A stretch of DNA of 64,000 bases from a bacterium. Its GTDB lineage: Bacteria; Bacteroidota; Ignavibacteria; SZUA-365. Shown here piece by piece: positions 1,954-57,057 of the stretch. Position 1 is the first letter of the stretch. The number at the start of each line of letters is the position of its first letter. Location: positions 286,882-350,881 of the forward strand of contig JAHLLD010000002.1 in the NCBI GenBank assembly GCA_020444325.1. Reading direction: 5' to 3'. The notes beneath the pieces are model-generated. The model had not been told where the DNA came from. It was given only the letters and a program-made list of their open reading frames with translations, and ran no database searches. The translations under genes and the position numbers were made by a program.

Positions 1954-3231
1954 ATGCCGAAACTCCAGGAAAAACTGGCAGAAGTCTACGCTCCGAAACG
2001 CGATGAGATCAAGCAGCTCGTCAAGGAGCATGGCGACAAAGTCGTCTCTCAAGTAACTATCAAGCAGGTGTATGGCGGTATGCGCGGCGTAAAGGGCCTC
2101 GTCTGCGATACCTCCGTTGTTCCGCCGGACAAAGGACTTATTATTCGCGGTATCGAGCTGAAAGAGCTCACCGAGAAACTTCCCGAAGAAATTTTCTACC
2201 TCCTCCTCTCCGGATCGCTCCCGAATGACGAAGAGCTGGCTGATCTGCAGGCACAGCTGCGCGAGAAGCAGGACGTTCCCAGTTACGTTTGGGACGTGCT
2301 CAGCGCCATGCCGGCCGACTCGCATCCGATGGCCATGTTCAACACCGCCATTCTCGTCATGGAGAAGGAATCGGTGTTCCGTCAGCGCTATGACGAAGGC
2401 ATGAAGAAGGACGAGTACTGGATGGCAACGCTCGACGATGCCATTTCCATCGTCGCCAAGCTGCCGGCCATCGCCGCATGGATCTATCGCAAGCGTTTCG
2501 GCAAGGGCGAAGCCATCATGCCCGATCCGAAGCTCGACTGGGGCGCCAATTACGTGCACATGCTCGGACTCGGCGATCCCAACGGTGAATTCACCAAGTT
2601 CATGCGCCTCTACCTCGTTCTCCACAGCGACCACGAGGGTGGCAACGTCAGCGCGTTCTCGGCCGCGACGGTCAACAGCGCACTGTCCGATCTCTACTAT
2701 GCCATGTCGGCAGGACTCAACGGCCTCGCCGGTCCGCTGCATGGACTCGCGAACCAGGAATGCCTCAAGTGGATTCTCGACGTCAACAAGGAATTCGGCG
2801 GCGCACCGTCGAAAGAACAGCTCGAGAAGTTCGCGTGGGATACGCTCGATTCCGGAAAGGTGATTCCGGGTTACGGCCACGCCGTGCTGCGCATCACCGA
2901 CCCGCGCTTCGACGCCTTCCTCGCCTTCGGCAAGCAGTATTGCATGGATGATCCCGTGTTCCAGACCGTTTCCAACGTCTTTGACGTGGTCCCGGGTGTG
3001 CTGCGCCAGATCAAGAAGATCGCCGATCCCTGGCCAAACGTCGATGCCGGCTCCGGCGCCATGCTGTATCATTACGGACTCAAGGAGTTCTCCTACTACA
3101 CGGTGCTCTTCAGCGTCAGCCGCGCTCTGGGAATCGCATCCCAGGCAGTCGTCGCCCGCGCCTACGGACTCCCCATCACCCGTCCGAAATCCGTCCCCTC
3201 GTCATGGGTCAAGGATCAGATTAACAGTTAA
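1954..3231 (+). CDS. gltA: citrate synthase
   Basis: 425 aa. Strong similarity to type-I citrate synthases (GGMRG, LVLHSDHEGGNVSA, GYGHAVLR motifs). Full length. Confidence 0.92.
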   Translation: MPKLQEKLAEVYAPKRDEIKQLVKEHGDKVVSQVTIKQVYGGMRGVKGLVCDTSVVPPDKGLIIRGIELKELTEKLPEEIFYLLLSGSLPNDEELADLQAQLREKQDVPSYVWDVLSAMPADSHPMAMFNTAILVMEKESVFRQRYDEGMKKDEYWMATLDDAISIVAKLPAIAAWIYRKRFGKGEAIMPDPKLDWGANYVHMLGLGDPNGEFTKFMRLYLVLHSDHEGGNVSAFSAATVNSALSDLYYAMSAGLNGLAGPLHGLANQECLKWILDVNKEFGGAPSKEQLEKFAWDTLDSGKVIPGYGHAVLRITDPRFDAFLAFGKQYCMDDPVFQTVSNVFDVVPGVLRQIKKIADPWPNVDAGSGAMLYHYGLKEFSYYTVLFSVSRALGIASQAVVARAYGLPITRPKSVPSSWVKDQINS

Positions 3232-3260
3232 TCATGATCTGATAATCTGGCTGAATCTTT

Positions 3261-3500
3261 GGAAACCCTCGGTGTTACCGGGGGTTTCCTGCATACGGCA
3301 GATTGCAGATGACAAATTGCAGATGACAAATGGCAGATGACAAATTGCAGATGACAAATGGCAGATGGCAAATGACAAATGACCATCGTCCCCACGCAGA
3401 GCGTGTGGCCGATGAGCTAATCTGCCATCTGCGATCTGCCATCTGCAATTTGCAATTTGCAATCTGCAATCTGCAATCTGCAATCTGACATCTGCAATTT
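3261..3500. repeat. intergenic composite repeat: hairpin, direct 14-bp GCAGATGACAAA-type array, then an inverted heptamer (GCAATCT)n array
   Basis: Seen directly. A 13-bp-stem hairpin ggaaaccctcggt/accgggggtttcc at 3261-3289. About 5.5 tandem copies of [T/G]TGCAGATGACAAA at 3304-3381. A central spacer at 3383-3416, then about 12 tandem 7-mers of ATCTGC/CAATCTG at 3417-3500. The ATCTGC units are the reverse complement of the GCAGAT units on the left, giving a large imperfect palindrome. Confidence 0.85.
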
Positions 3501-3552
3501 ACCCCCCATTCCCGTATCTTTAGAATCCTGTTACAAGCACTAGGATCACACT

Positions 3553-4635
3553 ATGCAGATCGGACTCGTAGGACTCCCTTTCAGTGGGAAATCGACACTC
3601 TTTCAAACCATGACGCGGACGCATCTCGATGAGGCGACGCTGGCCAAGCAGCAGTCGCAGCATGCTATGGTGAAGGTGCCGGATGCGCGCGTGGATAAGC
3701 TGGCGGAATTCTTCAACCCGAAGAAGAAAGTCTATACCTCAATCGAATTCGTCGATGTGATCGGCCTCAAGAAGGGCGACCATTCTTCGACGCAGTTCAC
3801 CAGTTCTTTCCTCGGATCAGTGAAGACGAACGACGCCCTCATGCACGTGGTGCGCATGTTCGATGATCCGATGTATCCGCATCCCGAAGGTGGAGTGGAT
3901 GCGGCCCGCGATATCGAAATCCTCGAGACGGAATTCCTCCTCAGTGACATGGAAATGGTTGAGAACCGCGTCGAGAAGCTGCGCAAGCAGGTGCAGAAGG
4001 TGCAGGACGATAAGCTCAAACACGAACTTGTGGTGCTCGAACGCTTCAAGGAAGCACTCGACGAAGGAAAGCCGCTGCGCACGGTGGAGATCGACAAGCA
4101 GGATGCACAGCTGATAAAAGGTTTCCAGTTCCTCACGCAGAAACCGCTGCTCGTTGTCCTCAACATGGAAGAGGACAAGGTGGGAGAGACCGATGGTATC
4201 GTGAATGAGCTGCAGGAGCGCTTCAAGGACAGTGGTATCAGCGTGGATGCCTTCTTCGGCAAGATCGAGATGGAACTCGCACAGATGGAGGATGAGGACG
4301 CCGCCGAGTTCATGAAGGACTATGGCATCGAGGAATCGGCTCTGACGCGTATTATCCGCTCAGCCTATGAGATGCTCGGACTCATTTCCTTCCTCACTTT
4401 CGGCGAGGATGAATGCCGCGCGTGGAATGTTCGCGGCGGAAGCGTCGCTCCGGAAGCAGCGGGTGTCATCCACAGCGACCTGCAGGATCGCTTCATTCGT
4501 GCAGAAGTGGTCCACTTCGAGGATTTCGTCGAGTACGGGAGTATCTCGGCCTGCAAGGAGTCCGGGCACTGGCGGCTTGAAGGGAAGGAATACCTGGTGC
4601 AGGATGGGGATATGCTGACGATAAGACACGGGTGA
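3553..4635 (+). CDS. ychF: ribosome-binding ATPase YchF (Obg-family GTPase with TGS domain)
   Basis: 360 aa. P-loop GLPFSGKST; N-terminal MQIGLVGLPFSGKSTLFQTMT matches the YchF N-terminal region; length and C-terminal TGS-like end fit. Confidence 0.88.
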   Translation: MQIGLVGLPFSGKSTLFQTMTRTHLDEATLAKQQSQHAMVKVPDARVDKLAEFFNPKKKVYTSIEFVDVIGLKKGDHSSTQFTSSFLGSVKTNDALMHVVRMFDDPMYPHPEGGVDAARDIEILETEFLLSDMEMVENRVEKLRKQVQKVQDDKLKHELVVLERFKEALDEGKPLRTVEIDKQDAQLIKGFQFLTQKPLLVVLNMEEDKVGETDGIVNELQERFKDSGISVDAFFGKIEMELAQMEDEDAAEFMKDYGIEESALTRIIRSAYEMLGLISFLTFGEDECRAWNVRGGSVAPEAAGVIHSDLQDRFIRAEVVHFEDFVEYGSISACKESGHWRLEGKEYLVQDGDMLTIRHG

Positions 4636-5302: not shown

Positions 5303-6882
5303 CGCTGGGCGGCATCCGAGCCGTTGAGCAGATCGCGGATAATCTCGCCGTACGCGTGCATGATGTCCGTGGCAATCAGCCCGTACTCACCGACGATATC
5401 CCGTGCATGATCGCCCGCGAGTCCGTGCAGATACACGCCCAGGCATGCGGCCTGCTCCATGCTGGCACCCTGCGCCGCGAGTCCTGCGATGATGCCGGAA
5501 AGCACGTCACCAGATCCCGCCGTGGCCATGCCGGGATTGCCCGTAGAGTTGATGAAGGTCTTCCCATCCTTCGTGGCGACGACTGTCGGGGCTCCCTTGA
5601 GCACGAGGGTGACACCGAATTCCACGGCGAACGTCTGTGCGATGTCGATGCGCTTGCTCTCGATTTCTTCCTTGGACTGCACCACGAGACGCGCGAATTC
5701 CCCGACATGGGGTGTGAGGATGATGTCGTTCTGCGTCTGCTGCAGCAGCGGGAGATGCTCGCGCAGGGCGTACAGCGCGTCAGCGTCGAGCAGGAGGGGA
5801 CGCGAGGCGCGTTCGATGAGGCGGCGCACGAGATTCTGCGTCTCATACTGCCGGGAAATGCCCGGACCGAGGATACTGATGCTGGCGTCGTCACAGCGTT
5901 TGAGTATGGCATCGAAATCCTGCAGACTGAAGCTCCCGACACTGGTTTCCCCGAAGGGAATGGTCATGACTTCGGTCAGCTTGATTTCCAAGATGGAATT
6001 GAGGCTGGCTGGAACACCGAGATTGACGATGCCGGCACCGCTGCGCAGTGCCGCTTCCGATGCCATGGCGGCCGCACCGGTGAGCCCGGTTGACCCGGCA
6101 AGCACGAAGACATTTCCCAGCTGATACTTGTGCACATCGTGCCGGCGCCGCGGCAGCCATTTGCGCATGGCGTGCTCGGTGAGCTGGAAAGTTGAAGTCG
6201 CATGTTCGGTGTATCCCGCCTGCGCATTGCCGATATCAATATTGAACACCTCTCCGGCATACACGCGTCCCTCACGCAGCAGTAGTCCGCGCTTGAGTCC
6301 GCCCATGGTCGCCGTCGCGGCGCATTCGAGCGCAATGCCCAGTACTTCGCCGGTATCCGCATTGATGCCTGTGGGAATGTCCACCGCGAAGACGGGGATG
6401 TCGGACTGGTTGAGTACCTCAACGATCTCGGCGATTTCCCCCTTGATTGGCGAACTGATTCCGGTCCCGAGCATGGCGTCCACCACGAAGTCGGGCCGCC
6501 GGTCGATCGTGTCCTGCAGCGCAGCGCTGCCGCTCAGAAGCTGCACGCGCAGGAGATCCGTGTCTTTCTCCATCCGTCGGATGATCCGAAGGTTTGCTGC
6601 CGCGTCTCCCTGCGACGCTTCATCGGGTCCCAGCGTGTACACCAGCACGCGTGCCCGGCGATTGACCAGGTGCCGCGCCATGGCGAAACCATCCCCGCCG
6701 TTGTTGCCTTTGCCGCAGAGTATGACGACGAAGGCGCCCTCCATGTCGCCAAAAAATTCTTCGGCGGCATCGACGGCGCCCCGTGAGGCATTTTCCATGA
6801 GGACGATGCCGGGAATTCCGTATTCTTCGATCGCGGCCCTGTCACAGGCGCGCATCTCGTCAGATGTGTAGACAGGAAGCAT
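5299..6882 (-). CDS. nnr: bifunctional NAD(P)H-hydrate repair enzyme Nnr (epimerase + ADP-dependent dehydratase)
   Basis: 527 aa. N-terminal YjeF_N motif (GKGNNGGDGFAMARHL); C-terminal carbohydrate-kinase-like dehydratase domain (GPGISRQY...GSGDVLSGIIAG). Confidence 0.88.
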   Translation of the reverse strand: MLPVYTSDEMRACDRAAIEEYGIPGIVLMENASRGAVDAAEEFFGDMEGAFVVILCGKGNNGGDGFAMARHLVNRRARVLVYTLGPDEASQGDAAANLRIIRRMEKDTDLLRVQLLSGSAALQDTIDRRPDFVVDAMLGTGISSPIKGEIAEIVEVLNQSDIPVFAVDIPTGINADTGEVLGIALECAATATMGGLKRGLLLREGRVYAGEVFNIDIGNAQAGYTEHATSTFQLTEHAMRKWLPRRRHDVHKYQLGNVFVLAGSTGLTGAAAMASEAALRSGAGIVNLGVPASLNSILEIKLTEVMTIPFGETSVGSFSLQDFDAILKRCDDASISILGPGISRQYETQNLVRRLIERASRPLLLDADALYALREHLPLLQQTQNDIILTPHVGEFARLVVQSKEEIESKRIDIAQTFAVEFGVTLVLKGAPTVVATKDGKTFINSTGNPGMATAGSGDVLSGIIAGLAAQGASMEQAACLGVYLHGLAGDHARDIVGEYGLIATDIMHAYGEIIRDLLNGSDAAQR

Positions 6883-6888
6883 ATGCTT

Positions 6889-8313
6889 CTAGAATAAGCG
6901 GCCCATCCAGTCGAGTATCCACGACGGGAAAACGCCGATCAGCAGGATGCCGACGGCTGAAAGCGCGAGTGCAAAGGCACTGCTGCCGGAAAACACCGTC
7001 TGCTGGGGCTGTTCCTCTGTCTGGAAGAACATTACCACGACGACACGGAGATAGTAGTACACCGAAATCATACTGGTAATGACACCGATAATGGTGAGCC
7101 AGGTGTAACCGCCTTCGATTGCGGCGACGAAGATGTAGTATTTCCCGAAGAAGCCCGCGAGCGGGGGGAGTCCCACCAGCGAGAACATGAATACTGCCAT
7201 CATCACCGCGAGCGTGGGACGGCGGTAATAAAGTCCTTTGAAGTTGTCGATGGCCGTGCCGCCCTGCTCACTGTTCTCGATCACCGAGGCGATGCCAAAG
7301 GCGCCGATGTTGGTGAGTGTGTAGGAGATCAGGTAGAACAGCACGCCTGCCAGACTGATCTCACCACCGACCGTGAGTCCGATAAGCATGTAGCCCGCAT
7401 GCGCAATGCTCGAGTATGCCAGCATGCGTTTGATGTTGCTCTGTGCCAGCGCCACGAGGTTTCCAATCAGCATCGAAGCGACAGAGAGGACGGCAAACAC
7501 GGTGTTGATGCTGCTCTCGGTGAACTTGAAGGTTGATGTGAAGACAAGCAGCAGGGCCGTGAAGGCCGCGGCCTTTGCGCCGGTGGACATGAAGGCGGAG
7601 ACCATCGTGGGGGAGCCTTCGTACACGTCGGGCACCCACATGTGAAAGGGGACGGCGCCGACCTTGAAGGCGAAGCCGACAAGCAGCAGTCCGACCCCTG
7701 TCAGGAACAGGGGATCGGACTTGAGTGCCTGCAGATTCTGAGCGATTTCAAGAATGTTGGTCGTACCGGTGCTGCCGTAAATCAACGCGATGCCGTAGAG
7801 AAAGAAGCCGGTGGCGAAGGCGCCGAGAAGGAAGTATTTCAGCGCGGCTTCGTTGGCTTTGAGAACGCGACGGCTGAAGCCGGCGAGCACGTAGAGGCAG
7901 ACAGACATCAGCTCGAGGCCGATAAAGGTCACGACGAGGTCGGTTCCTGTGGCAAGCGCCATCATTCCGCCGACTGCAAGGAGAATGAGATGGAAAAATT
8001 CTCCGTACGCGACACCGATTTTCGCGATGTATTCCCGGGAGAGCATTATGGTGAGTCCCGCCGCCACAAGGAATATGATATTGACAAGACTGGCGTAGCC
8101 GCCTGTCATCACCATCCCGTCGAAGGCTGTTCCACGGTGCGGGAACGTCCACACGGCCAGCGCGATGTTGCCGAGAATGCCGATGAGCGACACCCAGTAC
8201 TCCGCTGTGTGCGAATCTTTCTTCAGCGCATTGATCATGATAACGATCAACGCGAGGAGAATCGTACCGGCGACCGGTGCGGTGTTCAGCGTATCAGTGA
8301 GCAGTTGTTCCAT
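6889..8313 (-). CDS. nuoN: NADH-quinone oxidoreductase subunit N
   Basis: 474 aa polytopic membrane protein with a NuoN/ND2-like profile (TDLVVTFIGLELMSV, HMWVPDVYEGSPT). Confidence 0.9.
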   Translation of the reverse strand: MEQLLTDTLNTAPVAGTILLALIVIMINALKKDSHTAEYWVSLIGILGNIALAVWTFPHRGTAFDGMVMTGGYASLVNIIFLVAAGLTIMLSREYIAKIGVAYGEFFHLILLAVGGMMALATGTDLVVTFIGLELMSVCLYVLAGFSRRVLKANEAALKYFLLGAFATGFFLYGIALIYGSTGTTNILEIAQNLQALKSDPLFLTGVGLLLVGFAFKVGAVPFHMWVPDVYEGSPTMVSAFMSTGAKAAAFTALLLVFTSTFKFTESSINTVFAVLSVASMLIGNLVALAQSNIKRMLAYSSIAHAGYMLIGLTVGGEISLAGVLFYLISYTLTNIGAFGIASVIENSEQGGTAIDNFKGLYYRRPTLAVMMAVFMFSLVGLPPLAGFFGKYYIFVAAIEGGYTWLTIIGVITSMISVYYYLRVVVVMFFQTEEQPQQTVFSGSSAFALALSAVGILLIGVFPSWILDWMGRLF

Positions 8314-31319: not shown

Positions 31320-32681
31320 ATGGAAGAATTCATCGTATCAATTTTCGGTATCGCGCTGTTCGCGATCATCGTCATCATGGTTGCCATCAGCCGTTTGCTT
31401 CTGATCTGTCATCCCAACGAAGTCATCGTCCTTTCCGGACGCAAGCGCAAACTCTCGGACGGTTCCATGGTCGGGTACCGTCTCATCCGCGGGGGACGCG
31501 CGATTCGCGTGCCGCTGATCGAGAAAGCCGCGCGCATGTCTCTTGAAACCATTCCTCTCGACCTGAGCGTCATGAACGCATATTCCAACGGGGGTATTCC
31601 ACTCAAAGTGGAGGCGATCGCCAATATCAAGATCGACAGCAGCGAGCCAACTTTTGGTAATGCCGTCGAACGTTTTCTCGGGAAATCCATGGCGGAGATA
31701 CATGAAATCGCAAAGGACACACTCGAGGGTAACCTGCGTGGCGTACTCGCAACACTGACCCCCGAAGAAGTCAACGACGATCGCCTCAAATTCGCCGGCA
31801 GTTTGATTGAAGAGGCGGATACCGATCTGAAGGCGCTCGGACTGCAGCTCGATACCCTGAAAATACAGAATGTCTCCGACGACGCCGGATATCTCGACAG
31901 CATCGGCCGCAGGAAAACCGCGGAGGTGCTTTCGAATGCGCGTAAGGCGGAAGCCGAAAGGAAGTCTGAAGCTGAGCAGTCCGAAGCCGATGCGCAGCAG
32001 AGGGCCGAGGTGGCCAAGGCCAATGCGAAGAAGGAAATCGAATCCGCGCAGATCAATGCCGAACGCACTATCAATGTAACCAAGGCCAAGGCGCAGCAGG
32101 ACGTTGAGATCGAGAATAACAACCTCCGCATCAAGAAGGCGGAACTCGAGCGCGAAGCGATCATCAAGGAGAAAGAAGCGGAAGTCGCCGGAGAAAAGGC
32201 GCGCGTTGTGTACGAGCAGGCCATGGAGCAGGAACGCATCGAACTGCAGAAAAAGCGTCTCACCGCCGATGTCATCGAACCGGCCCGCGCGAAGAAGGAG
32301 GCCATGGAACTAGAGGCCAAGGGCGACGCCGCCAAGATCATTGAAAACGGACTCGCGAACGTGAACATCCTCAACCAGATGATTAGCGCGTACAAGACGG
32401 CAGAAGGCGACGGAGAGAAGGTGTTCATCCTGAACATGCTGCCGGAAATCATCAATCAGCTGGTCGGTACTGTCGGCAAGCTCAACATCGACAAAATTTC
32501 TGTGGTGGACAGCGGCAGCGGCAAAACGGTTGGTGGACTCATGGGCCAGCTCCCTTCCGCGGTGATTTCCCTCAACGAAATCATTGAAAACGCCACAGGC
32601 GTGAACATCCTCAGCAATTTCAAAAAAGAAGAACTCCAGGCCGCCACGAAAAAAATCGACAATCTGACCCCCGAACAATAA
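31320..32681 (+). CDS. flotillin (SPFH/band-7 family, YqiK/FloA-like)
   Basis: 453 aa. N-terminal TM helix, SPFH domain, then a long Ala/Glu/Lys-rich coiled-coil (EA repeats) and a flotillin C-terminal region. Confidence 0.9.
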   Translation: MEEFIVSIFGIALFAIIVIMVAISRLLLICHPNEVIVLSGRKRKLSDGSMVGYRLIRGGRAIRVPLIEKAARMSLETIPLDLSVMNAYSNGGIPLKVEAIANIKIDSSEPTFGNAVERFLGKSMAEIHEIAKDTLEGNLRGVLATLTPEEVNDDRLKFAGSLIEEADTDLKALGLQLDTLKIQNVSDDAGYLDSIGRRKTAEVLSNARKAEAERKSEAEQSEADAQQRAEVAKANAKKEIESAQINAERTINVTKAKAQQDVEIENNNLRIKKAELEREAIIKEKEAEVAGEKARVVYEQAMEQERIELQKKRLTADVIEPARAKKEAMELEAKGDAAKIIENGLANVNILNQMISAYKTAEGDGEKVFILNMLPEIINQLVGTVGKLNIDKISVVDSGSGKTVGGLMGQLPSAVISLNEIIENATGVNILSNFKKEELQAATKKIDNLTPEQ

Positions 32682-32835
32682 TCAAGGGGAACATCAATCA
32701 AGGGGAACACAGATCTGCGCGGATTCTACGGATTTGCACGGAGAAGGTAGAAAGAACTCGCCATAATCTCCGTGAAAATCCGTAGGATCCGTGAGAATCC
32801 GTGTTACCATTGATTGATGTTACCCCTTGATTGTA
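32680..32835. repeat. ~155-bp palindromic intergenic element (MITE/REP-like), also a likely transcription stop for the flotillin gene
   Basis: Terminal inverted repeats aatcaaggggaacatcaatcaaggggaacac (32680-32710) and gtgttaccattgattgatgttaccccttgattg (32801-32833). Internal AATCCG[T] repeats in opposite orientations. A related degenerate copy lies at 17592-17658. Confidence 0.6.
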
Positions 32836-32899
32836 ATTGCCTGTTGGTCGCGGGAAGTGTACTTTTCAGGATTGCTCGTTTTTTACCGAAGAGGAACAC

Positions 32900-33514
32900 G
32901 TGAAAAAGTATTTCGTCCTGACCATTGCCGCACTCATGGTAACTGCCTGCGGCAGCGATAAAGATAAGACCGAACAGTCCGCCCAGCAGGAAGAATCTCC
33001 TGTCGTACGCATGCCCTTTGCGGAGGATTCCGAGGTCCCGGAGCCGTCTCCGGATGCGCTCGCCCCTGCGGAGAATATTCCGGATGAGGATCTGCCCGAT
33101 CTGAGCAAGCTCAGTACTGTTGAGCGGCAGATCTTCCGGAGAACGGTAAGTATCCAGGTCCCGTACTACGACGCGCTGGAGAAATGGGCCGATGCTGCCA
33201 ACGATATCAAGAAGGGAAGTGACGCCGCAAAGTCCCTTCGCAAATACATCGCGCTGCAGAATGATTTCGCCATCGAGATGCAGCAGATCGATGCGGAGTT
33301 CGCCGGGAAGATTGATGCGAACTATCAGGGTAGCCAGGAATTCCAGCGTGTGCTGGATGCCTACCTGAACGATCCGGATTTGATGCGGCGCACGGATTAC
33401 ATCATGCGTAGTTACATGTCTCTGATTCAGCGTTTCAAGGATGATCCTGCATGTAAGGATGTATTCGCCGATATCGAGCGTATGGCGCGTGAGGCGCAGC
33501 AGCAGATGCAGTAA
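32900..33514 (+). CDS. hypothetical lipoprotein
   Basis: About 204 aa from a GTG start (VKKYFVLTIAALMVTACGSDKDK). Signal peptide plus lipobox-like MVTAC. Acidic, helical. Start uncertain; the ORF track begins at 32837. Confidence 0.4.
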   Translation: MKKYFVLTIAALMVTACGSDKDKTEQSAQQEESPVVRMPFAEDSEVPEPSPDALAPAENIPDEDLPDLSKLSTVERQIFRRTVSIQVPYYDALEKWADAANDIKKGSDAAKSLRKYIALQNDFAIEMQQIDAEFAGKIDANYQGSQEFQRVLDAYLNDPDLMRRTDYIMRSYMSLIQRFKDDPACKDVFADIERMAREAQQQMQ

Positions 33515-33538: not shown

Positions 33539-35464
33539 TCAGTCTTCGAGCCGCTGGGCAAACTCCAGCCATTTGTCAGATAATTCTTCGATACGCGCAT
33601 CAATCTCCCTGATGCGCTCCCCGATTTCGGCCAGGCGGGCATAGTCCCCGCCTGCGCCATTTTCCAGCTCATCTGAAAGCGTCGCTTTTTCTTCCTCCAG
33701 GGACTGGATGTCGGTTTCCAGTTTTTCGAAGGCGCGTTCTTCCTTCCAGGTCAGTTTCTTCGGATTTTTTATCGGACGCGGCTCCGCGGGCTGCCTGGTC
33801 GAGGTGTTCTTCTGCACACGCTCCTGCGTTTCCGCTTCCTGCTGTGCTTCTGCTTCCTTGCGCTCCAGATATGAAGTGTAATTTCCGGGATACTGGCGAA
33901 TCTGTCCCTCACCGTCAAATGAATAGATGTAATCGACCGTGCGGTCGAGAAACATCCTGTCGTGGGAGACGATGACGAGGAAGCCGAGGAAGTTGGTCAG
34001 GTATTCTTCGAGAGCGGACATCGTCTGCAGATCGAAATCATTCGTCGGTTCGTCGAGGAAGAGCACATTCGGATTGTTCATCAGCACGATGAGCAGGGCC
34101 AGGCGGCGGCGTTCTCCGCCCGAAAGAGTGCCGACCAGCGCTCCCTGTTTTTTATGGGGGAAATGGAATTTTTTCAGCATATCCGTCGCCGAGAGATAGC
34201 GGTCTCTTCCCACACCCGTGTCGATGTACTCCGCCACTTCACGCAGCGTGGCGATGACACTTTTACTTGGATCGAAGTCCGTGTTTTCCTGCCGGAAATA
34301 ACCGATGCGTACGGAGCTCCCGATCTTCACACTTCCTTCGTCGGGCTCGATGTTCCCGCAGAGCACGTTGAGCAGGGTGGATTTCCCGCAGCCATTGGGT
34401 CCGATAATGCCGATGCGATCACCTGCCGTTGCGCGATAGGTGAAATGCTCGAAAAGGAGCTTGCCGCCTATGCTCTTTGCGATATTGACAGCGTCGATGA
34501 TTTTGCTGCCGAGGAAGCTGTCGCCCACTTCGATCTTGATGCGTTTTTCCTGCACCGGTTTTGGTGCCGCATGCATCTTCGCGATCCAGTCGATGCGGCT
34601 TTTCTGTTTGCTCCGTCTCGCCCGCGCTCCGCGCTGTAGCCAGGCAAGTTCCTGCCGCAGTTTCGAGCGTGTGCGTTCGGCTTCTGCCTCCTGTGCGTTT
34701 ATCATCGATTCGCGCCGCTCGAGGTATTGCTCATAGTTGCCGGGGAAACTGATGAGCTGCTGCTGATCCATTTCCACAATACGATTGACCACGGCGTCGA
34801 GAAAATAGCGGTCATGGGTGATCAGCAGCAGGGCGCGGGGGGACTGCTGAAGGCGGTCCTGCAGCCACTGCACGGAATCCGCATCCAGGTGATTTGTCGG
34901 TTCGTCGAGGATAAGCAAATCCGGATCGCGCAGCAGTGCACGCGCAAGTGCGACGCGCTTTCGTTGTCCGCCCGACAGTCGGCGCACATCCGCGTCAAAC
35001 TCCTGCACACCGAGTTTCTGCAGGATGATGCGTGCGTCCGTTTCCAGCGACCAGCCCTGCACATGCTCGATGCGCTCCGTTACGGTATCGAGTTCCTTCT
35101 GCAACGCTGCATCGTGCGACTTCGCGACGAGGCCGCACAGCTGCTCATGCCTGTCGAGCAGATCCCGTACCTCGCTTCTGCCATCGAGTACTGCATCAAG
35201 CACCGTCTGCTCTACGGGAAAGGATGGCATCTGCTCAAGGTATTCGAACGTGGCCTTGCTGTTGAAGGCGACCTTCCCGTCATCCGCATCTTCCGTGCCC
35301 GCAATGATGCGCAGCAACGTCGTCTTGCCCACGCCGTTCTTCCCGATAATGCCCACACGTTCGCCTTCCTCCATACCGAAGGCCACATCCGTAAATAGCG
35401 GCTGCTCGTGAAATGTCTTACTGAGTCCGTTGGTTGAAAACAATACCATGCATGCAATGTACAT
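33539..35464 (-). CDS. ABC-F family ATPase (tandem ABC domains, no TMD; translation-factor type)
   Basis: 641 aa. Two Walker A sites (GKNGVGKTT, GPNGCGKST), two signature motifs (LSGGQRKRVALA, LSGGERRRLALL), an inter-domain linker and a C-terminal coiled-coil. Confidence 0.9.
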   Translation of the reverse strand: MYIACMVLFSTNGLSKTFHEQPLFTDVAFGMEEGERVGIIGKNGVGKTTLLRIIAGTEDADDGKVAFNSKATFEYLEQMPSFPVEQTVLDAVLDGRSEVRDLLDRHEQLCGLVAKSHDAALQKELDTVTERIEHVQGWSLETDARIILQKLGVQEFDADVRRLSGGQRKRVALARALLRDPDLLILDEPTNHLDADSVQWLQDRLQQSPRALLLITHDRYFLDAVVNRIVEMDQQQLISFPGNYEQYLERRESMINAQEAEAERTRSKLRQELAWLQRGARARRSKQKSRIDWIAKMHAAPKPVQEKRIKIEVGDSFLGSKIIDAVNIAKSIGGKLLFEHFTYRATAGDRIGIIGPNGCGKSTLLNVLCGNIEPDEGSVKIGSSVRIGYFRQENTDFDPSKSVIATLREVAEYIDTGVGRDRYLSATDMLKKFHFPHKKQGALVGTLSGGERRRLALLIVLMNNPNVLFLDEPTNDFDLQTMSALEEYLTNFLGFLVIVSHDRMFLDRTVDYIYSFDGEGQIRQYPGNYTSYLERKEAEAQQEAETQERVQKNTSTRQPAEPRPIKNPKKLTWKEERAFEKLETDIQSLEEEKATLSDELENGAGGDYARLAEIGERIREIDARIEELSDKWLEFAQRLED

Positions 35465-35496
35465 CGAATGCAGTCAAATCCCCGAATTGGCAATTT

Positions 35497-35925
35497 GCAG
35501 ATGGCAGATTGCAGATTACAGATTGCAGATTACAGATTACAGATTACAGATTGCAGATGGCAGATGGCAGATGGCAGATTGCAAATTGGGCAGGAGCGGG
35601 GATTGCTTCCCACGGCGTGTCCCCGGATGCTTGCCTGGCGCCCGGAAGCAATCCCTGATTTGCGGAACATGGAAGTATTGAAAGATCGAATAATGGAATC
35701 ATAAGGATGATGTCATATTTCCATTTTCCATCATTTCATTTTTCCATACTCAGCGTTCCTCCGGTAGCACTCAGAATCAGGGATTGCTTCCGGGCTTTGC
35801 GCAGGTATCCGGGAACACGCCGAGGGAAGCAATCCCTGCTCCTGCCGAGTTTGTAATCTGTAATCTGTAATCTGTAATCTGTAATCTGCAATCTGCCATA
35901 TGGAATATGGAATCTGTTATCTGGA
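35497..35925. repeat. ~430-bp composite inverted-repeat element: heptamer (RCAGATK)n array plus hairpin module on each arm, flanking a 106-bp AT-rich core
   Basis: Left arm 35497-35660: 13 tandem heptamers (GCAGATG/GCAGATT/ACAGATT), then ggcaggagcgGGGATTGCTTCC-33nt-GGAAGCAATCCCtgatt. Right arm 35767-35925 is the ~85%-identical reverse complement (tcagGGATTGCTTCC...GGAAGCAATCCCtgctcctgcc, then (GTAATCT)n). The core 35661-35766 is about 70% AT. The element lies between divergent ABC-F (-) and M20 peptidase (+) starts. Confidence 0.85.
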
Positions 35926-35995
35926 CTGATTTTTTGTATATTCCTCAATTCACGTCTAAATCGCCCAATTTCGTGCACCAGCAGGAGCTATAGTG

Positions 35996-37378
35996 ATGAA
36001 AGAGCTTGCGGAGTATTTCAAAGCCAACCAGGATCGCTACATGGAGGAGTTGGCGGAGTTTATCAAGATTCCGAGTATCAGCGCGCATGCGGAACGGCGG
36101 AAGGACATCTCAAAGGCCGCCAAATTCACGGAAAAACAGCTGAAAGCGGCGGGATTGAAGAATGTGAAACAGTATCCCACCAAGGGGAATCCCGTTGTGT
36201 ACGGTGAATGGCTCGGTGCAAAGGGAGCACCCACCGTTCTGGTGTACGGACATTATGATGTGCAGCCTGTCGAGCCGCTTGAGAAATGGAAATCCGAACC
36301 GTTCACCATGACGATTCGCGGTGGGAAAATGTTCGGCCGCGGTACGGCGGATGATAAGGGACAGGTGTTCATTCACTTCAAGGTGATCGAAGCTTACCTC
36401 AAGACACAGAAGAAGTTACCGGTCAACATCAAAGTCATCGTTGAGGGTGAGGAAGAGGTCGGTAGCATCAATCTGGTGGATTTTGTCAAGAAGCATCGCA
36501 AGCTGCTGACCTGTGATACCATCCTGATTTCCGATACGAACATGCTCGGGAAGACCAAGCCGAGTATCACGTACGGACTGCGTGGACTCACGTACCTCGA
36601 GCTTTCCGTGACCTCCCTCAACGGCGACCAGCACAGCGGTACCTTCGGCGGCGGCGTGGCCAATCCGATTCAGGTGTTGTCGGAGCTTCTCGTCAAGTGT
36701 AAGGACCCGAAAACCAGCAAGGTGAAAATTCCAGGATTCTACGATGACGTGGTCCCCCTGAGCCGTAAGGAGCGCAATGAACTCGCAAAGATTCCGCACG
36801 ATGACAGGATGTATGCAAAATCCATCGGCGCGGTCAATACTTTCGGTGAGAAGGGGTATACGACCATCGAACGCACCGGTGCTCGTCCCACCTTTGAAAT
36901 CAACGGCATGTGGGGTGGACACACGGGAGCGGGTGTGAAAACCGTGCTGCCGGCATCCGCGCATGCGAAAGTTTCGATGCGCCTTGTCGCCAATCAGGAT
37001 CCTGACAAGATTGCAAAGCTCTTCAAAGACTATATCAAGAGCATCGCGCCGGACACGGTGAAGGTGGATGTCAAACTGTATGAGAACAACGGGTATGCCG
37101 CGCTGACGCCCATCAACGCTGACGGTATGAAGGCAGCGGGAGCCGCGATCAGAAAGGTGTACAAGAAGGATCCCTTCTTTACCCGCGAAGGTGGTTCCAT
37201 TCCTGTCGTGGCCGATTTCCAGCGCCTGCTCGGAGTGGAAGCCATTCTCCTCGGTTTCGGCCTGCCTGACGACAATCTGCATGCTCCCAATGAGAAAATG
37301 GATATATCCCAGTTCAATAAGGGACTCACGACAACGATGCATTTTCTCGAGGAATATGCCGCGCTGAAGCAGAAATAG
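35996..37378 (+). CDS. M20 family dipeptidase/peptidase (ArgE/DapE/CPG2-type, with dimerisation domain)
   Basis: About 460 aa. M20 metal-binding motifs (GHYDVQPV, GRGTADDKGQ, EGEEEVGS). Confidence 0.85.
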   Translation: MKELAEYFKANQDRYMEELAEFIKIPSISAHAERRKDISKAAKFTEKQLKAAGLKNVKQYPTKGNPVVYGEWLGAKGAPTVLVYGHYDVQPVEPLEKWKSEPFTMTIRGGKMFGRGTADDKGQVFIHFKVIEAYLKTQKKLPVNIKVIVEGEEEVGSINLVDFVKKHRKLLTCDTILISDTNMLGKTKPSITYGLRGLTYLELSVTSLNGDQHSGTFGGGVANPIQVLSELLVKCKDPKTSKVKIPGFYDDVVPLSRKERNELAKIPHDDRMYAKSIGAVNTFGEKGYTTIERTGARPTFEINGMWGGHTGAGVKTVLPASAHAKVSMRLVANQDPDKIAKLFKDYIKSIAPDTVKVDVKLYENNGYAALTPINADGMKAAGAAIRKVYKKDPFFTREGGSIPVVADFQRLLGVEAILLGFGLPDDNLHAPNEKMDISQFNKGLTTTMHFLEEYAALKQK

Positions 37379-55397: not shown

Positions 55398-56120
55398 GTG
55401 ATTTCAATAATCATCCCGACGCTTGACGAAGAAAAACTGCTGCCGCAGATTCTTGCGCAGTTCCCCGCAGAACTGTGCCGCGCACATGATGTGGAAATCA
55501 TCATCAGTGACGGGGGCAGCAAGGATGCGAGCACACAGATCGCGCGGGAGCATGGAGCCGTCGTCGTTGAGCATGAGGGCGATCACCGGCAGACCATTGC
55601 CGAAGGAAGGAATCGCGGTGCGGAGGTTGCCCGGGGCGACATCCTCGTTTTCATCAACGCCGACATCCGTATCAGTGATGTGTCCTCCTTTTTCCGGGAT
55701 ATCGAAAGCTGTCTGCAGCGTGATACTGTCAGCGGTGTCACGGCAGTGGTGAGGGTGTTTCCCGAAGAGGAGATCCTCTCGGACCGCATGTTCCATTTCT
55801 GGCACAATCATTACGTGCGCTTTCTCAACGCCATCGGCGAGGGAATGGGGAGGGGAGAATGCCAGGTGCTGCGCAGGGAAATGTTCCGAAGCATCGGCGG
55901 CTATAACGCCTCGATGGTCGCGGGCGAGGATTACGACCTGTTTCGCCGTGTGCGGAAAAAAGGGAAAGTCGTCATGATGCCGCATACGGTGATCTATGAA
56001 TCCCCCAGGCGCTTCCGTAAGTATGGTTACCTGCACATTTTGTGGGGCTGGACGAGAAATGCGCTGGCGGTGATTTTCCGGAATAAGTCCTCAAGTGAGG
56101 AATGGGAAGCAGTGCGCTGA
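55398..56120 (+). CDS. family 2 glycosyltransferase
   Basis: 240 aa. GT2 fold motifs (IIIPTLDEE, DGGSKD, FINAD, acidic ED motif). Confidence 0.8.
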   Translation: MISIIIPTLDEEKLLPQILAQFPAELCRAHDVEIIISDGGSKDASTQIAREHGAVVVEHEGDHRQTIAEGRNRGAEVARGDILVFINADIRISDVSSFFRDIESCLQRDTVSGVTAVVRVFPEEEILSDRMFHFWHNHYVRFLNAIGEGMGRGECQVLRREMFRSIGGYNASMVAGEDYDLFRRVRKKGKVVMMPHTVIYESPRRFRKYGYLHILWGWTRNALAVIFRNKSSSEEWEAVR

Positions 56121-56162
56121 GGAATGGGAAGCAGTGCGCTGAGGAATGGGAAGCAGTGCGCT
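56097..56162 (+). repeat. perfect 22-bp tandem repeat x3 (gaggaatgggaagcagtgcgct) spanning the GT2 stop codon
   Basis: Seen directly: three identical consecutive copies at 56097-56118, 56119-56140 and 56141-56162. The first copy encodes the C-terminal EEWEAVR-stop of the GT2 gene. Confidence 0.92.
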
Positions 56163-56235
56163 GAGGCTTGGAATTCAGTTCGCCTGGCGGCATATTTTAT
56201 ATGGAGTTGTTCAATCTCGTCTGCAGGTGAAAAGT

Positions 56236-57057
56236 ATGTTTTCAAGATTTCCTGTCACGCTGGCTGTTCTTCTGCTCAGTGTCCTCGTTCTGGGCGCATG
56301 CGACGATGATGATGGCGGTGGTGACCCGAGTGCGTCGCTTGAAATGGTCAACATTCCCGCTGGAAGCTTTACTATGGGGGATCCCAGTGCTTCGCATGAG
56401 ATCAATGAGCGCCCAGCCCGGGAGGTTTTAATCAACGCGTTCAGCATGAGTAAATTCGAGGTGTCACAGAAGCTGTATTCGGATGTCATGGGTGAAAATC
56501 CCAGCAGCAATAAGGGCGACAACAATCCCGTTGAGAAGGTGAAATTTGCGGATGCGCTGCGCTTCTGCAACGCGCTTTCTGAGCGAGATGGACTGACGCC
56601 GGTTTACTCTGATATTGATGGTGCCGTCAAGGCGAACTTCGACGCGAACGGTTACCGTTTGCCTACGGAAGCTGAGTGGGAATATGCCTGTCGTGCCGGC
56701 ACGACCACGGATTTCTATACGGGTTCGACGCTTGAGGACCTGCAGTCCTGTGGATGGTTTTCCGGGAATGCTGACGGTCATACTCATGAGCGCGGGAAGC
56801 TCGCACCAAACGACTTTGGGCTTTATGACATGCACGGAAACGTATTCGAGTGGTGCTGGGACTGGTACAGCCAGAATTATTATGCGCAGGGTGTAAACAA
56901 CAATCCGCATGGTCCTGCCGGTGGGACACAGCGCGTCTGCCGCGGTGGTTCATGGTTTGTCTATCAGTACGGGTGTCGTTCCAGTTTTCGTTCCATGCTC
57001 GAACCGAAGTACGACAGCATCGACATCGGCATACGCCTGGTCAGAAATGCCGGGTGA
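56236..57057 (+). CDS. formylglycine-generating-enzyme (FGE-sulfatase/SUMF1) domain lipoprotein
   Basis: About 273 aa. Lipoprotein signal (LVLGAC). FGE-sulfatase domain motifs (VNIPAGSFTMG, GYRLPTEAEWEYACRAG, YDMHGNVFEWCWDWY, RVCRGGSW). Confidence 0.8.
   Translation: MFSRFPVTLAVLLLSVLVLGACDDDDGGGDPSASLEMVNIPAGSFTMGDPSASHEINERPAREVLINAFSMSKFEVSQKLYSDVMGENPSSNKGDNNPVEKVKFADALRFCNALSERDGLTPVYSDIDGAVKANFDANGYRLPTEAEWEYACRAGTTTDFYTGSTLEDLQSCGWFSGNADGHTHERGKLAPNDFGLYDMHGNVFEWCWDWYSQNYYAQGVNNNPHGPAGGTQRVCRGGSWFVYQYGCRSSFRSMLEPKYDSIDIGIRLVRNAG

Follow-up and report, generated by a model that had tools for sequence, protein, structure and literature searches.

Inverted heptanucleotide repeat arrays between gltA and ychF and their counterparts in other bacterial genomes

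Between the citrate synthase gene gltA and the ychF gene of a bacterial genome lie two tandem arrays of a seven-nucleotide repeat that face each other in inverted orientation, and the question raised by this locus is what kind of element such a pair represents and how it comes to be kept. The analysis covered a stretch of 64,000 nucleotides, hereafter called the window, together with the same site and the same repeat in other genomes. An earlier, sequence-only reading had offered three interpretations, namely a site for a multimeric DNA-binding protein, a structured RNA, or a MITE-like repeat. The gltA-ychF spacer occupies positions 3232-3552 of the window and contains, in order, a GC-rich hairpin, a left array, a core, and a right array. 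These and their neighbours are as follows.

1954 to 3231, + strand: gltA, citrate (Si)-synthase, an open reading frame whose exact sequence stands under this source name (MCB2203881.1)
3261 to 3289, + strand: GC-rich hairpin, terminator-like for gltA, GGAAACCCTCGGT-GTT-ACCGGGGGTTTCC, with a 13-bp stem, 92% complementary, −23.1 kcal/mol
3297 to 3383, + strand: left arm, in which GCAGATK and GACAAAT alternate over about 12.5 heptamer units, an effective 14-mer period (Tandem Repeats Finder)
3384 to 3418, no strand: non-repeat core of 35 nt with its own small hairpin, CATCG..CCCAC-GCAGAGC-GTGTGG..CGATG
3419 to 3498, + strand: right arm, the left-arm family in reverse complement, about 12 units of MATCTGC / AATTTGC
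3498 to 3526, + strand: promoter-like site TTTACC-17-TAGAAT (consensus scan), abutting the last repeat unit, upstream of ychF
3553 to 4635, + strand: ychF, redox-regulated ATPase (open reading frame; PF06071; source name)

The flanking genes are those named in the sequence-only reading. Relatives whose GltA falls into one 90%-identity cluster with the window GltA are labelled Bacteroidota, and their GltA proteins match PF00285. Tandem Repeats Finder described the left array (3297-3383) both as period 7 with 11 copies and as period 14 with 5.6 copies (89% match, consensus GCAGATGACAAATG), and the right array (3419-3498) as period 7 with 11.4 copies (86% match, AATCTGC). The left arm can be parsed into the units GGCAGAT, TGCAGAT, GACAAAT, TGCAGAT, GACAAAT, GGCAGAT, GACAAAT, TGCAGAT, GACAAAT, GGCAGAT, GGCAAAT, and GACAAAT, and the right arm into AATCTGC, CATCTGC, GATCTGC, CATCTGC, AATTTGC, AATTTGC, AATCTGC (three times), AATCTGA, CATCTGC, and AATTTAC. 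The sequence itself bears out the arrays given by Tandem Repeats Finder. By inverted-repeat pairing the two arrays are mutually inverse, with 84-nt arms that are 79% complementary and 39 nt apart (left partner 3297-3380). The arrays and core together make up 202 of the 321 intergenic bases, in agreement with the claim that the repeat takes up most of the spacer. The extent first given for it, 3261-3500, was right for the arrays (3297-3498) but not for the start, which belongs to the GC-rich hairpin, a separate feature outside the repeat arrays. This hairpin was missed by a simple terminator scan because of its short T run. The core region 3376-3426 folds at −17.5 kcal/mol. The arrays lie after the terminator-like hairpin of gltA and before the promoter-like site at 3498-3526, which as a consensus match is a candidate ychF promoter; a stretch of this region, CCGTATCTT, is common to the relatives L222 and L213.

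When the window was scanned for GCAGATNGCAGAT with at most one mismatch, 24 occurrences were found against 0.39 expected, about 60 times chance, and all but one fell in two repeat loci. The second of these had been noted before as a recurrence of the heptamer family at 35.5 kb, and it was found there as the arrays 35488-35588 and 35852-35923, the latter (ATCTGTA)n, with the following parts.

35488 to 35588, + strand: left arm of the second locus, about 14 units of TTGCAGA/TTACAGA/TGGCAGA (Tandem Repeats Finder)
35589 to 35851, no strand: core, two inverted GC-rich hairpin copies GGGATTGCTTCC...GGAAGCAATCCC flanking an AT-rich centre
35852 to 35923, + strand: right arm, about 10 units of ATCTGTA/ATCTGCA

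The AT-rich centre is itself a palindrome, (ATGGAAN)n / (NTTCCAT)n, and the locus as a whole (35488-35923) is a nested palindrome with 149-nt arms (81%) and a fold z-score of −18.7; the gltA-ychF element has z-scores relative to shuffled sequences of −9.8 as RNA and −9.3 as DNA. The second locus sits between the divergent genes 33539-35464 (− strand) and 35993-37378 (+ strand), and both heptamer loci within the 64-kb window are intergenic.

Several other repeats were observed in the window. The AT-rich centre of the second locus (35660-35780) shares about 35 nt (CATATTTCCATTTTCCATCATTTCAT...) with a palindrome at the gltA-ychF site of a relative (L211 150-290 / L227 2840-2930), and (ATGGAAN)n/(NTTCCAT)n is a second repeat family in the lineage of the window. 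A third intergenic palindrome, at 32686-32825 between the open reading frames 31320-32681 and 32837-33514, has 59-nt arms with 83% complementarity and is made of other short tandem units with periods of 16, 10, and 17 (GAACAACAATCAAGGG, TCCGTGAGAA); therefore, long repeat-built hairpins seem to be a general habit of the source genome. At 56096-56166, a perfect 22-mer, TGAGGAATGGGAAGCAGTGCGC, is present in 3.2 copies with 100% identity and overlaps the start of the open reading frame 56146-57057. Open reading frames of 64-130 aa at 3232-3483 (− strand), 3275-3469 (− strand), and 2948-3340 (+ strand) cross the gltA-ychF arrays, and these are artefacts of a repeat that lacks stop codons in every frame, not genes. 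Within the right arm, at window position 3466, begins a Logan short-read contig with an identical sequence; such arrays break short-read assemblies, and annotators should mask them.

The element was then set against the known classes of repeat. It is not CRISPR-like, as had been claimed: the units are contiguous heptamers without spacers in two inverted arrays, and not repeats of 23-50 nt with unique spacers. Among the three interpretations, the MITE-like repeat was closest in spirit, in that a dispersed, hairpin-forming family is present in many genomes, but the element is not a classical MITE, as there was no target-site duplication and no internal sequence common to copies. The structured-RNA interpretation received no specific support. 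The folding that had been suggested as a check did reveal a strong structure, but the Rfam search gave no family match: in the entire window only a tRNA reached gathering score, and in 3200-3560 the best matches were 18-20 bits compared to gathering scores of 57-190, with nothing at E ≤ 1. The element folds at −101.4 kcal/mol in the sense and −126.9 kcal/mol in the antisense direction, it is located between the terminator-like hairpin and the promoter-like site, and folds of both strands together with counts of G-U pairs at six orthologous or related loci showed no sense bias. The array hairpin was also rejected as an intrinsic terminator, in that the scan found none in 3100-3700 and the stem is long, AT-rich, and followed by CCCCCC. 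The properties of bacterial heptanucleotide tandem repeats of the LSSR/STRR type are all present, namely head-to-tail 7-nt units, dispersed intergenic loci (in 64 kb), and unit-number polymorphism. The convergent pair of the Xanthomonas type, with close arrays on opposite strands, was found as well, whereas the G-tract unit of that type was not: GCAGATK, GACAAAT, and AATCTGC have no run of three G.

The history of the site was followed in contigs that encode a close GltA or YchF, in which gltA is about 87-90% identical to the window at the nucleotide level. The terminator hairpin, AAAACCCCCGGGCGACCGGGGGTTTT followed by a T-rich tail, is kept at the matching place in all compared relatives, and most of them have a repeat palindrome a few bases downstream. 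In comparison to the 12 plus 12 units of the window, L222 has 4 plus 5-6 units around a 42-nt core. L223 and L224, which have an identical GltA protein, carry (GCAGATA)17 and (GCAGATA)20, respectively, followed by five degenerate inverse units with no core, and such a change in unit number between near-identical relatives is a signature of replication slippage. At the same site L211 and L227 have an 8-mer palindrome, GATGGAAA / TTTCCATC, and L213 has (GTGCAAA)3(TTTGCAC)2; the contigs L225 and L226 break off at the array, and no array was found at the gltA-ychF site of L214 (YchF 78%). The 35-nt core of the window is different in the close relative L222 and absent from L224 and L213. The gltA site is thus a clean natural series: a palindrome stays in place while its units are replaced and vary extremely in number, and the arms still pair.

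Two further observations were made on these contigs. In L223, an IS256-family transposase gene (PF00872; 3340-4569) lies directly 3′ of the (GCAGATA)17 array, at the place of ychF in the window. In the 90%-identical relative L211, about 250 nt of sequence downstream of ychF (positions 1600-1870) are missing from the window; they consist of a unit of about 45 nt repeated three times in tandem and, after it, a (CCATCTG/TAATCTG/CAATCTG)n array.

A comparable series was found in the copper ATPase gene of Chloroflexales, in which a palindromic heptamer pair directly follows the codons for VTDV in four lineages whose proteins are 76-100% identical. Each lineage has about 4.5 units per arm, and the units are ATTGCAG, AATGTTG, AATGCAA, and AAGGMTG. 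The Oscillochloris trichoides gene has a short linker and no array at this position, and the cores of the array-bearing orthologues at this CopA site resemble one another and not the O. trichoides linker. The distance between the consensus units of the two arms was 0-1 in seven of eight loci; between lineages, it was 2-4 for the CopA series and 0-3 for the gltA series. On this sequence comparison, the unit differences at the two sites are compensatory changes of whole arrays.

To see how widely the repeat occurs, one genome per species was scanned for the pattern (GCAGATN)4, and at least 120 loci were obtained. The matches come from at least seven phyla (Chloroflexota, Acidobacteriota, Planctomycetota, Gemmatimonadota, Verrucomicrobiota, Bacteroidota, Pseudomonadota, and others) and include isolates and long-read assemblies. 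The sequence-only reading had considered that the arrays might be unique to the two window loci and without conservation, and the palindromes in relatives and the (GCAGATN)n arrays in these phyla speak against this. Many family loci share the anatomy of the window element, (ATTGCAG)n, a variable core, and (CTGCAAT)n; the cores vary in length from 3 to about 270 nt and, when long, often hold a hairpin or a bidirectional terminator. No relationship links these cores, even when they come from one genome (Oscillochloris sp. ZM17-4) or from the two loci of the window. Among the matches listed, 36 pairs of arrays within 600 nt of each other had the order (GCAGATN)n...(NATCTGC)n, none had the opposite order, and 6 were direct, with the convergent pairs drawn from at least 20 genomes in at least seven phyla. 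The outer boundary of the arrays is sharp, with A at 131, T at 135, and T/G at 140 of 178 array ends (ATT/ATG) and random sequence beyond, so that the outer phase is ATT|GCAGAT; the inner boundary is fuzzy and decays gradually. No target-site duplication and no conserved base beyond ATT appeared in the flank logo of the 178 ends. Among arrays whose length the search pattern had not preselected, four units are the most frequent (18 arrays of three units, 26 of four, and 4 of five).

The surroundings of the arrays are varied. With a crude gene caller, about 33 single arrays were stop-adjacent and 26 start-adjacent, which gives no orientation preference relative to neighbouring genes. An all-against-all BLAST of 786 neighbouring open reading frames, with Pfam searches on the recurrent clusters, revealed no recurrent mobilisation gene near the approximately 120 loci and no RAYT-type or recurrent transposase-like gene adjoining any of them; the recurrent neighbour families are common housekeeping ones, such as ABC transporters, sigma-54 activators, and PMT glycosyltransferases. 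Copies in frame inside real genes were found within or between the Pfam domains Pkinase, RibD_C, Lactamase_B, PMT_2, and PDDEXK_1 and in the HAD domain of the copper P-type ATPase. Such copies are possible because all six frames of GCAGATT are free of stop codons, as can be read directly from its sequence. In two syntenic contigs that are 72-83% identical, L013 (4500-4660) and L065 (4730-4850), the element is at different spacers of a ribosomal protein operon, and its presence or absence differs by spacer, in sequences too diverged to define the junctions. One contig of this pair has probably been binned wrongly, as it is labelled Heliobacteriaceae but its match is to a MAG of Acidobacteriota.

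Abundance does not set GCAGATN apart: in viral contigs, heptamers of the same composition gave 33 loci (GGCAATN), 38 (GACGATN), and 4 (GCAAGTN), compared to 14 for GCAGATN. Therefore, heptamer arrays of many units are widespread, and a special abundance of this one is not supported. Other heptamer families show both arm orders, and the 36:0 order is a property of the GCAGATN family; a general rule that the purine-rich arm is 5′ was likewise rejected, as the other families split 4 versus 5. Any model of the GCAGATT family must therefore accommodate a fixed order of the arms, an equally fixed outer phase, a length of about four units, and copies that are tolerated inside genes.

Some individual loci have a more complex structure. 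In Oscillochloris sp. ZM17-4 (L004, 2940-3243), a composite unit made of a heptamer array and TGTCCGGATCCCGACCGAGCAGGCACAGAT, 65 to about 73 nt long, occurs four times in direct orientation, and a single inverse array ends the series. A single PMT-type glycosyltransferase open reading frame of a Chloroflexia MAG (L049, 537-1246) contains three four-unit GCAGATT arrays that translate as LQIADCRLQI or a close variant, and two other glycosyltransferases of the GT-C type (L010, L086) have one GCAGATT array each. The viral contig IMGVR_UViG_3300013117_000130 (L147) carries three MITE-like copies, at 1014-1160, 5522-5717, and 7787-7935, composed of (GGCAGTT/GGCAATT)n and its inverse around similar cores of about 90-140 nt; these cores look related, unlike those of the GCAGATT family.

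These comparisons show the element to be, to judge from its sequence, a member of a dispersed family whose unit turns over between lineages with the arms still complementary. The explanation that we prefer, and hold to be probable though well short of certain, is that of a long-lived, hypervariable palindromic heptanucleotide microsatellite, the arms of which are kept alike by correction and the length of which is changed by slippage. The number of units would grow and shrink by replication slippage, and the complementarity of the arms would be kept by correction of one arm by the other when they pair as a hairpin or cruciform, with no sequence-reading protein involved. GACAAAT, present in 6 copies in the left arm, has no counterpart in the right arm, and therefore this correction would be incomplete. 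The arrays would occupy the least constrained part of the spacer, past the terminator-like hairpin and ahead of the promoter-like site. Any effect at the gltA-ychF locus would be structural: as a long hairpin or cruciform, the element could shield ychF from transcripts that read through from gltA, and changes in array length could alter the sequence ahead of the ychF promoter, so that an insulating or a tuning effect on ychF could result. Three features of the family go beyond slippage and arm correction, namely the strict arm order (36 versus 0), the sharp outer phase, and the clean in-frame copies. The fixed order, the sharp phase, and the presence of whole modules in genes hint at an insertion-type origin, and the founding copy may have come from an insertion-type event with a defined outer end.

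Selection for a hairpin could also be the reason why a palindrome persists at one site across lineages, in which case it would be wrong to call the element mostly neutral. A long stem would then be useful at the gltA-ychF site, and the unit would drift freely as long as the arms pair. Either gltA read-through folds into a stem of about 80 bp that is stopped or cut (RNase III-type), uncoupling ychF, or a cruciform upstream of the ychF promoter tunes it. We regard this selected hairpin as unlikely, though worth serious consideration. Structure is kept without conservation of sequence at two independent sites (gltA and CopA), the fold energies of both window loci are very strong, the location between the terminator-like hairpin and the promoter-like site is suitable, and deletion of heptamer repeats in Nostoc is reported to alter the behaviour of the recO promoter (preprint, 10.1101/2022.06.06.494920). 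However, the sense strand is not the better folder (−101.4 versus −126.9 kcal/mol antisense), with no consistent bias in relatives; one arm in L223 and L224 has expanded to 17-20 units opposite 5, and L214 manages without an array. Family members are also found in every gene context, including inside open reading frames, which fits tolerance better than one function, and conversion alone can keep the arms of a palindrome alike. A protein that reads the heptamers is far less credible. In this iteron-like reading, each unit would be bound by a sequence-specific DNA- or RNA-binding protein that regulates ychF, as would suit the regular 7-nt spacing and the closeness of the array to the ychF start and the promoter-like site; there are precedents in the TTTTGAT heptads of V. 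cholerae ctxAB, which are reported to be bound by regulators, and in the binding hypothesis for TAACTGA (PMC4679880). What makes a sequence-specific binding protein unlikely is that orthologous sites do not keep the unit: in relatives that are only about 10-14% diverged in gltA, GCAGATA, GTGCAAA, or the 8-mer GATGGAAA replaces it while the palindrome persists, and in L214 it is absent. Two different units alternate within the left arm of the window, and arrays of the family have no orientation preference to genes (about 33 stop-adjacent versus 26 start-adjacent). We consider this reading highly improbable, and the multimeric protein-binding site first suggested for the locus is disfavoured with it.

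A different kind of alternative is an active, sequence-specific insertion system, in which an enzyme acting in trans, either a REPIN/RAYT-like transposase or one that performs template-based 3′-end extension at nicks or breaks, would place the module ATT(GCAGATT)~4, in most cases as two inverted copies that enclose a short loop; the window copy would be an old insertion later expanded by slippage. This would account for inverted pairs in one order only (36 against none, from no fewer than 20 genomes and seven phyla, with both orders in other heptamer families), for an outer boundary that is sharp and an inner one that is fuzzy, for a unit number that peaks at 4, as in Xanthomonas, for in-frame copies inside real domains, and for syntenic relatives with the element at different ribosomal protein operon spacers. 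It is at odds with the lack of target-site duplications in the 178 array ends, with loops and cores that differ even in one genome, and with the lack of a recurrent neighbouring gene or enzyme candidate near the approximately 120 loci. Moreover, (GCAGATN)4 in viral contigs is not commoner than some same-composition controls (14 versus 33, 38, and 4), and, since units turn over in situ, different phyla may carry an identical unit without common descent. We consider such a system doubtful, less probable again than the selected hairpin. More speculative still is the proposal that the ATT(GCAGATT)~4 module is the product of an undescribed, widespread enzymatic process that writes heptamer repeats from a fixed phase, for example by copying a template onto 3′ ends at nicks or breaks, or as a REPIN/RAYT-like system whose ends are tandem heptamers. 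If true, it would explain the 36:0 order, the boundaries, the missing target duplications, the variable cores, the modal four units, and the in-frame copies inside genes in at least seven phyla, and it would show how the excess of bacterial heptamer repeats, noted long ago, comes about. We retain the slipping, arm-corrected palindromic microsatellite as the working explanation.

Among known systems, REP/REPIN doublets, which are mobilised by RAYT transposases, have two short inverted modules with a variable spacer that form a hairpin, and they are extragenic and multicopy with single-module remnants. The inverted-doublet hairpin is found in the window element and in the pairs of its family as well; however, REP modules are imperfect palindromes with a conserved 5′ tetranucleotide, whereas the modules here are tandem heptamers. 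Rickettsia palindromic elements are small palindromic repeats that are tolerated in frame in protein genes, typically in loops, and they are confined to one genus and are not tandem heptamers. The GCAGATT family resembles them in this in-frame tolerance, but the sequence is unrelated.

Bacterial heptamer repeats as a class have already been described, and the gltA-ychF element adds one member. Their over-representation has been known since 2007 and ascribed to slippage (PMC4692102). The GGGAATC repeats of Xanthomonas number about 186 per genome, with a mode of four units, 70 convergent inverted pairs, and 89-93% in intergenic positions (Rehm et al. 2015, PMC4692102); they vary in length and sequence between Xcc and Xac, and GGGGA(C/T)T heptameric repeats of Nostoc have also been described (PMC4692102). 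Like these, the window family is dispersed and mostly intergenic, with a mode of four units and convergent pairs that can form stem-loops or cruciforms, and, as do the gltA-site arrays, the Xanthomonas repeats vary between close relatives at matching intergenic sites. The G-quadruplex rationale offered for Xanthomonas is inapplicable to GCAGATK/GACAAAT because these have no G-tracts, and GCAGATT occurs across many phyla, whereas GGGAATC belongs to one genus. The TAACTGA repeats are common to Beggiatoaceae, Cyanobacteria, and Bacteroidetes with no evident route of transfer (MacGregor 2015, PMC4679880), and they are found in ribosomal protein operons, next to start codons, and occasionally inside open reading frames; of their sets, 169 are direct and 1 is indirect, mostly "forward" and just upstream of start codons (PMC4679880). 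GCAGATT is similar in being one heptamer across distant phyla, in ribosomal operons and inside open reading frames, in which assemblies break, but TAACTGA is almost always direct, whereas the GCAGATT family is often an inverted pair without gene-orientation bias. For Nostoc, a preprint reports that heptamer repeats affect recF/recO expression (10.1101/2022.06.06.494920). The cyanobacterial LSSR/STRR heptanucleotide repeats show an intergenic excess for which polymerase slippage was proposed (Mrazek et al. 2007 and Mazel et al. 1990, as cited in PMC4692102); as represented there, these surveys treat arrays singly, whereas the window family has a fixed arm order, an outer phase, and compensatory turnover of units. 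A search of the literature by repeat sequence found no paper containing a GCAGATT array, and, as far as we found in the literature searched, arm polarity across phyla, boundary phase, and unit turnover at a stable site are undescribed. In kind, the element matches the heptamer repeats described from Xanthomonas, Nostoc, and the Beggiatoaceae.
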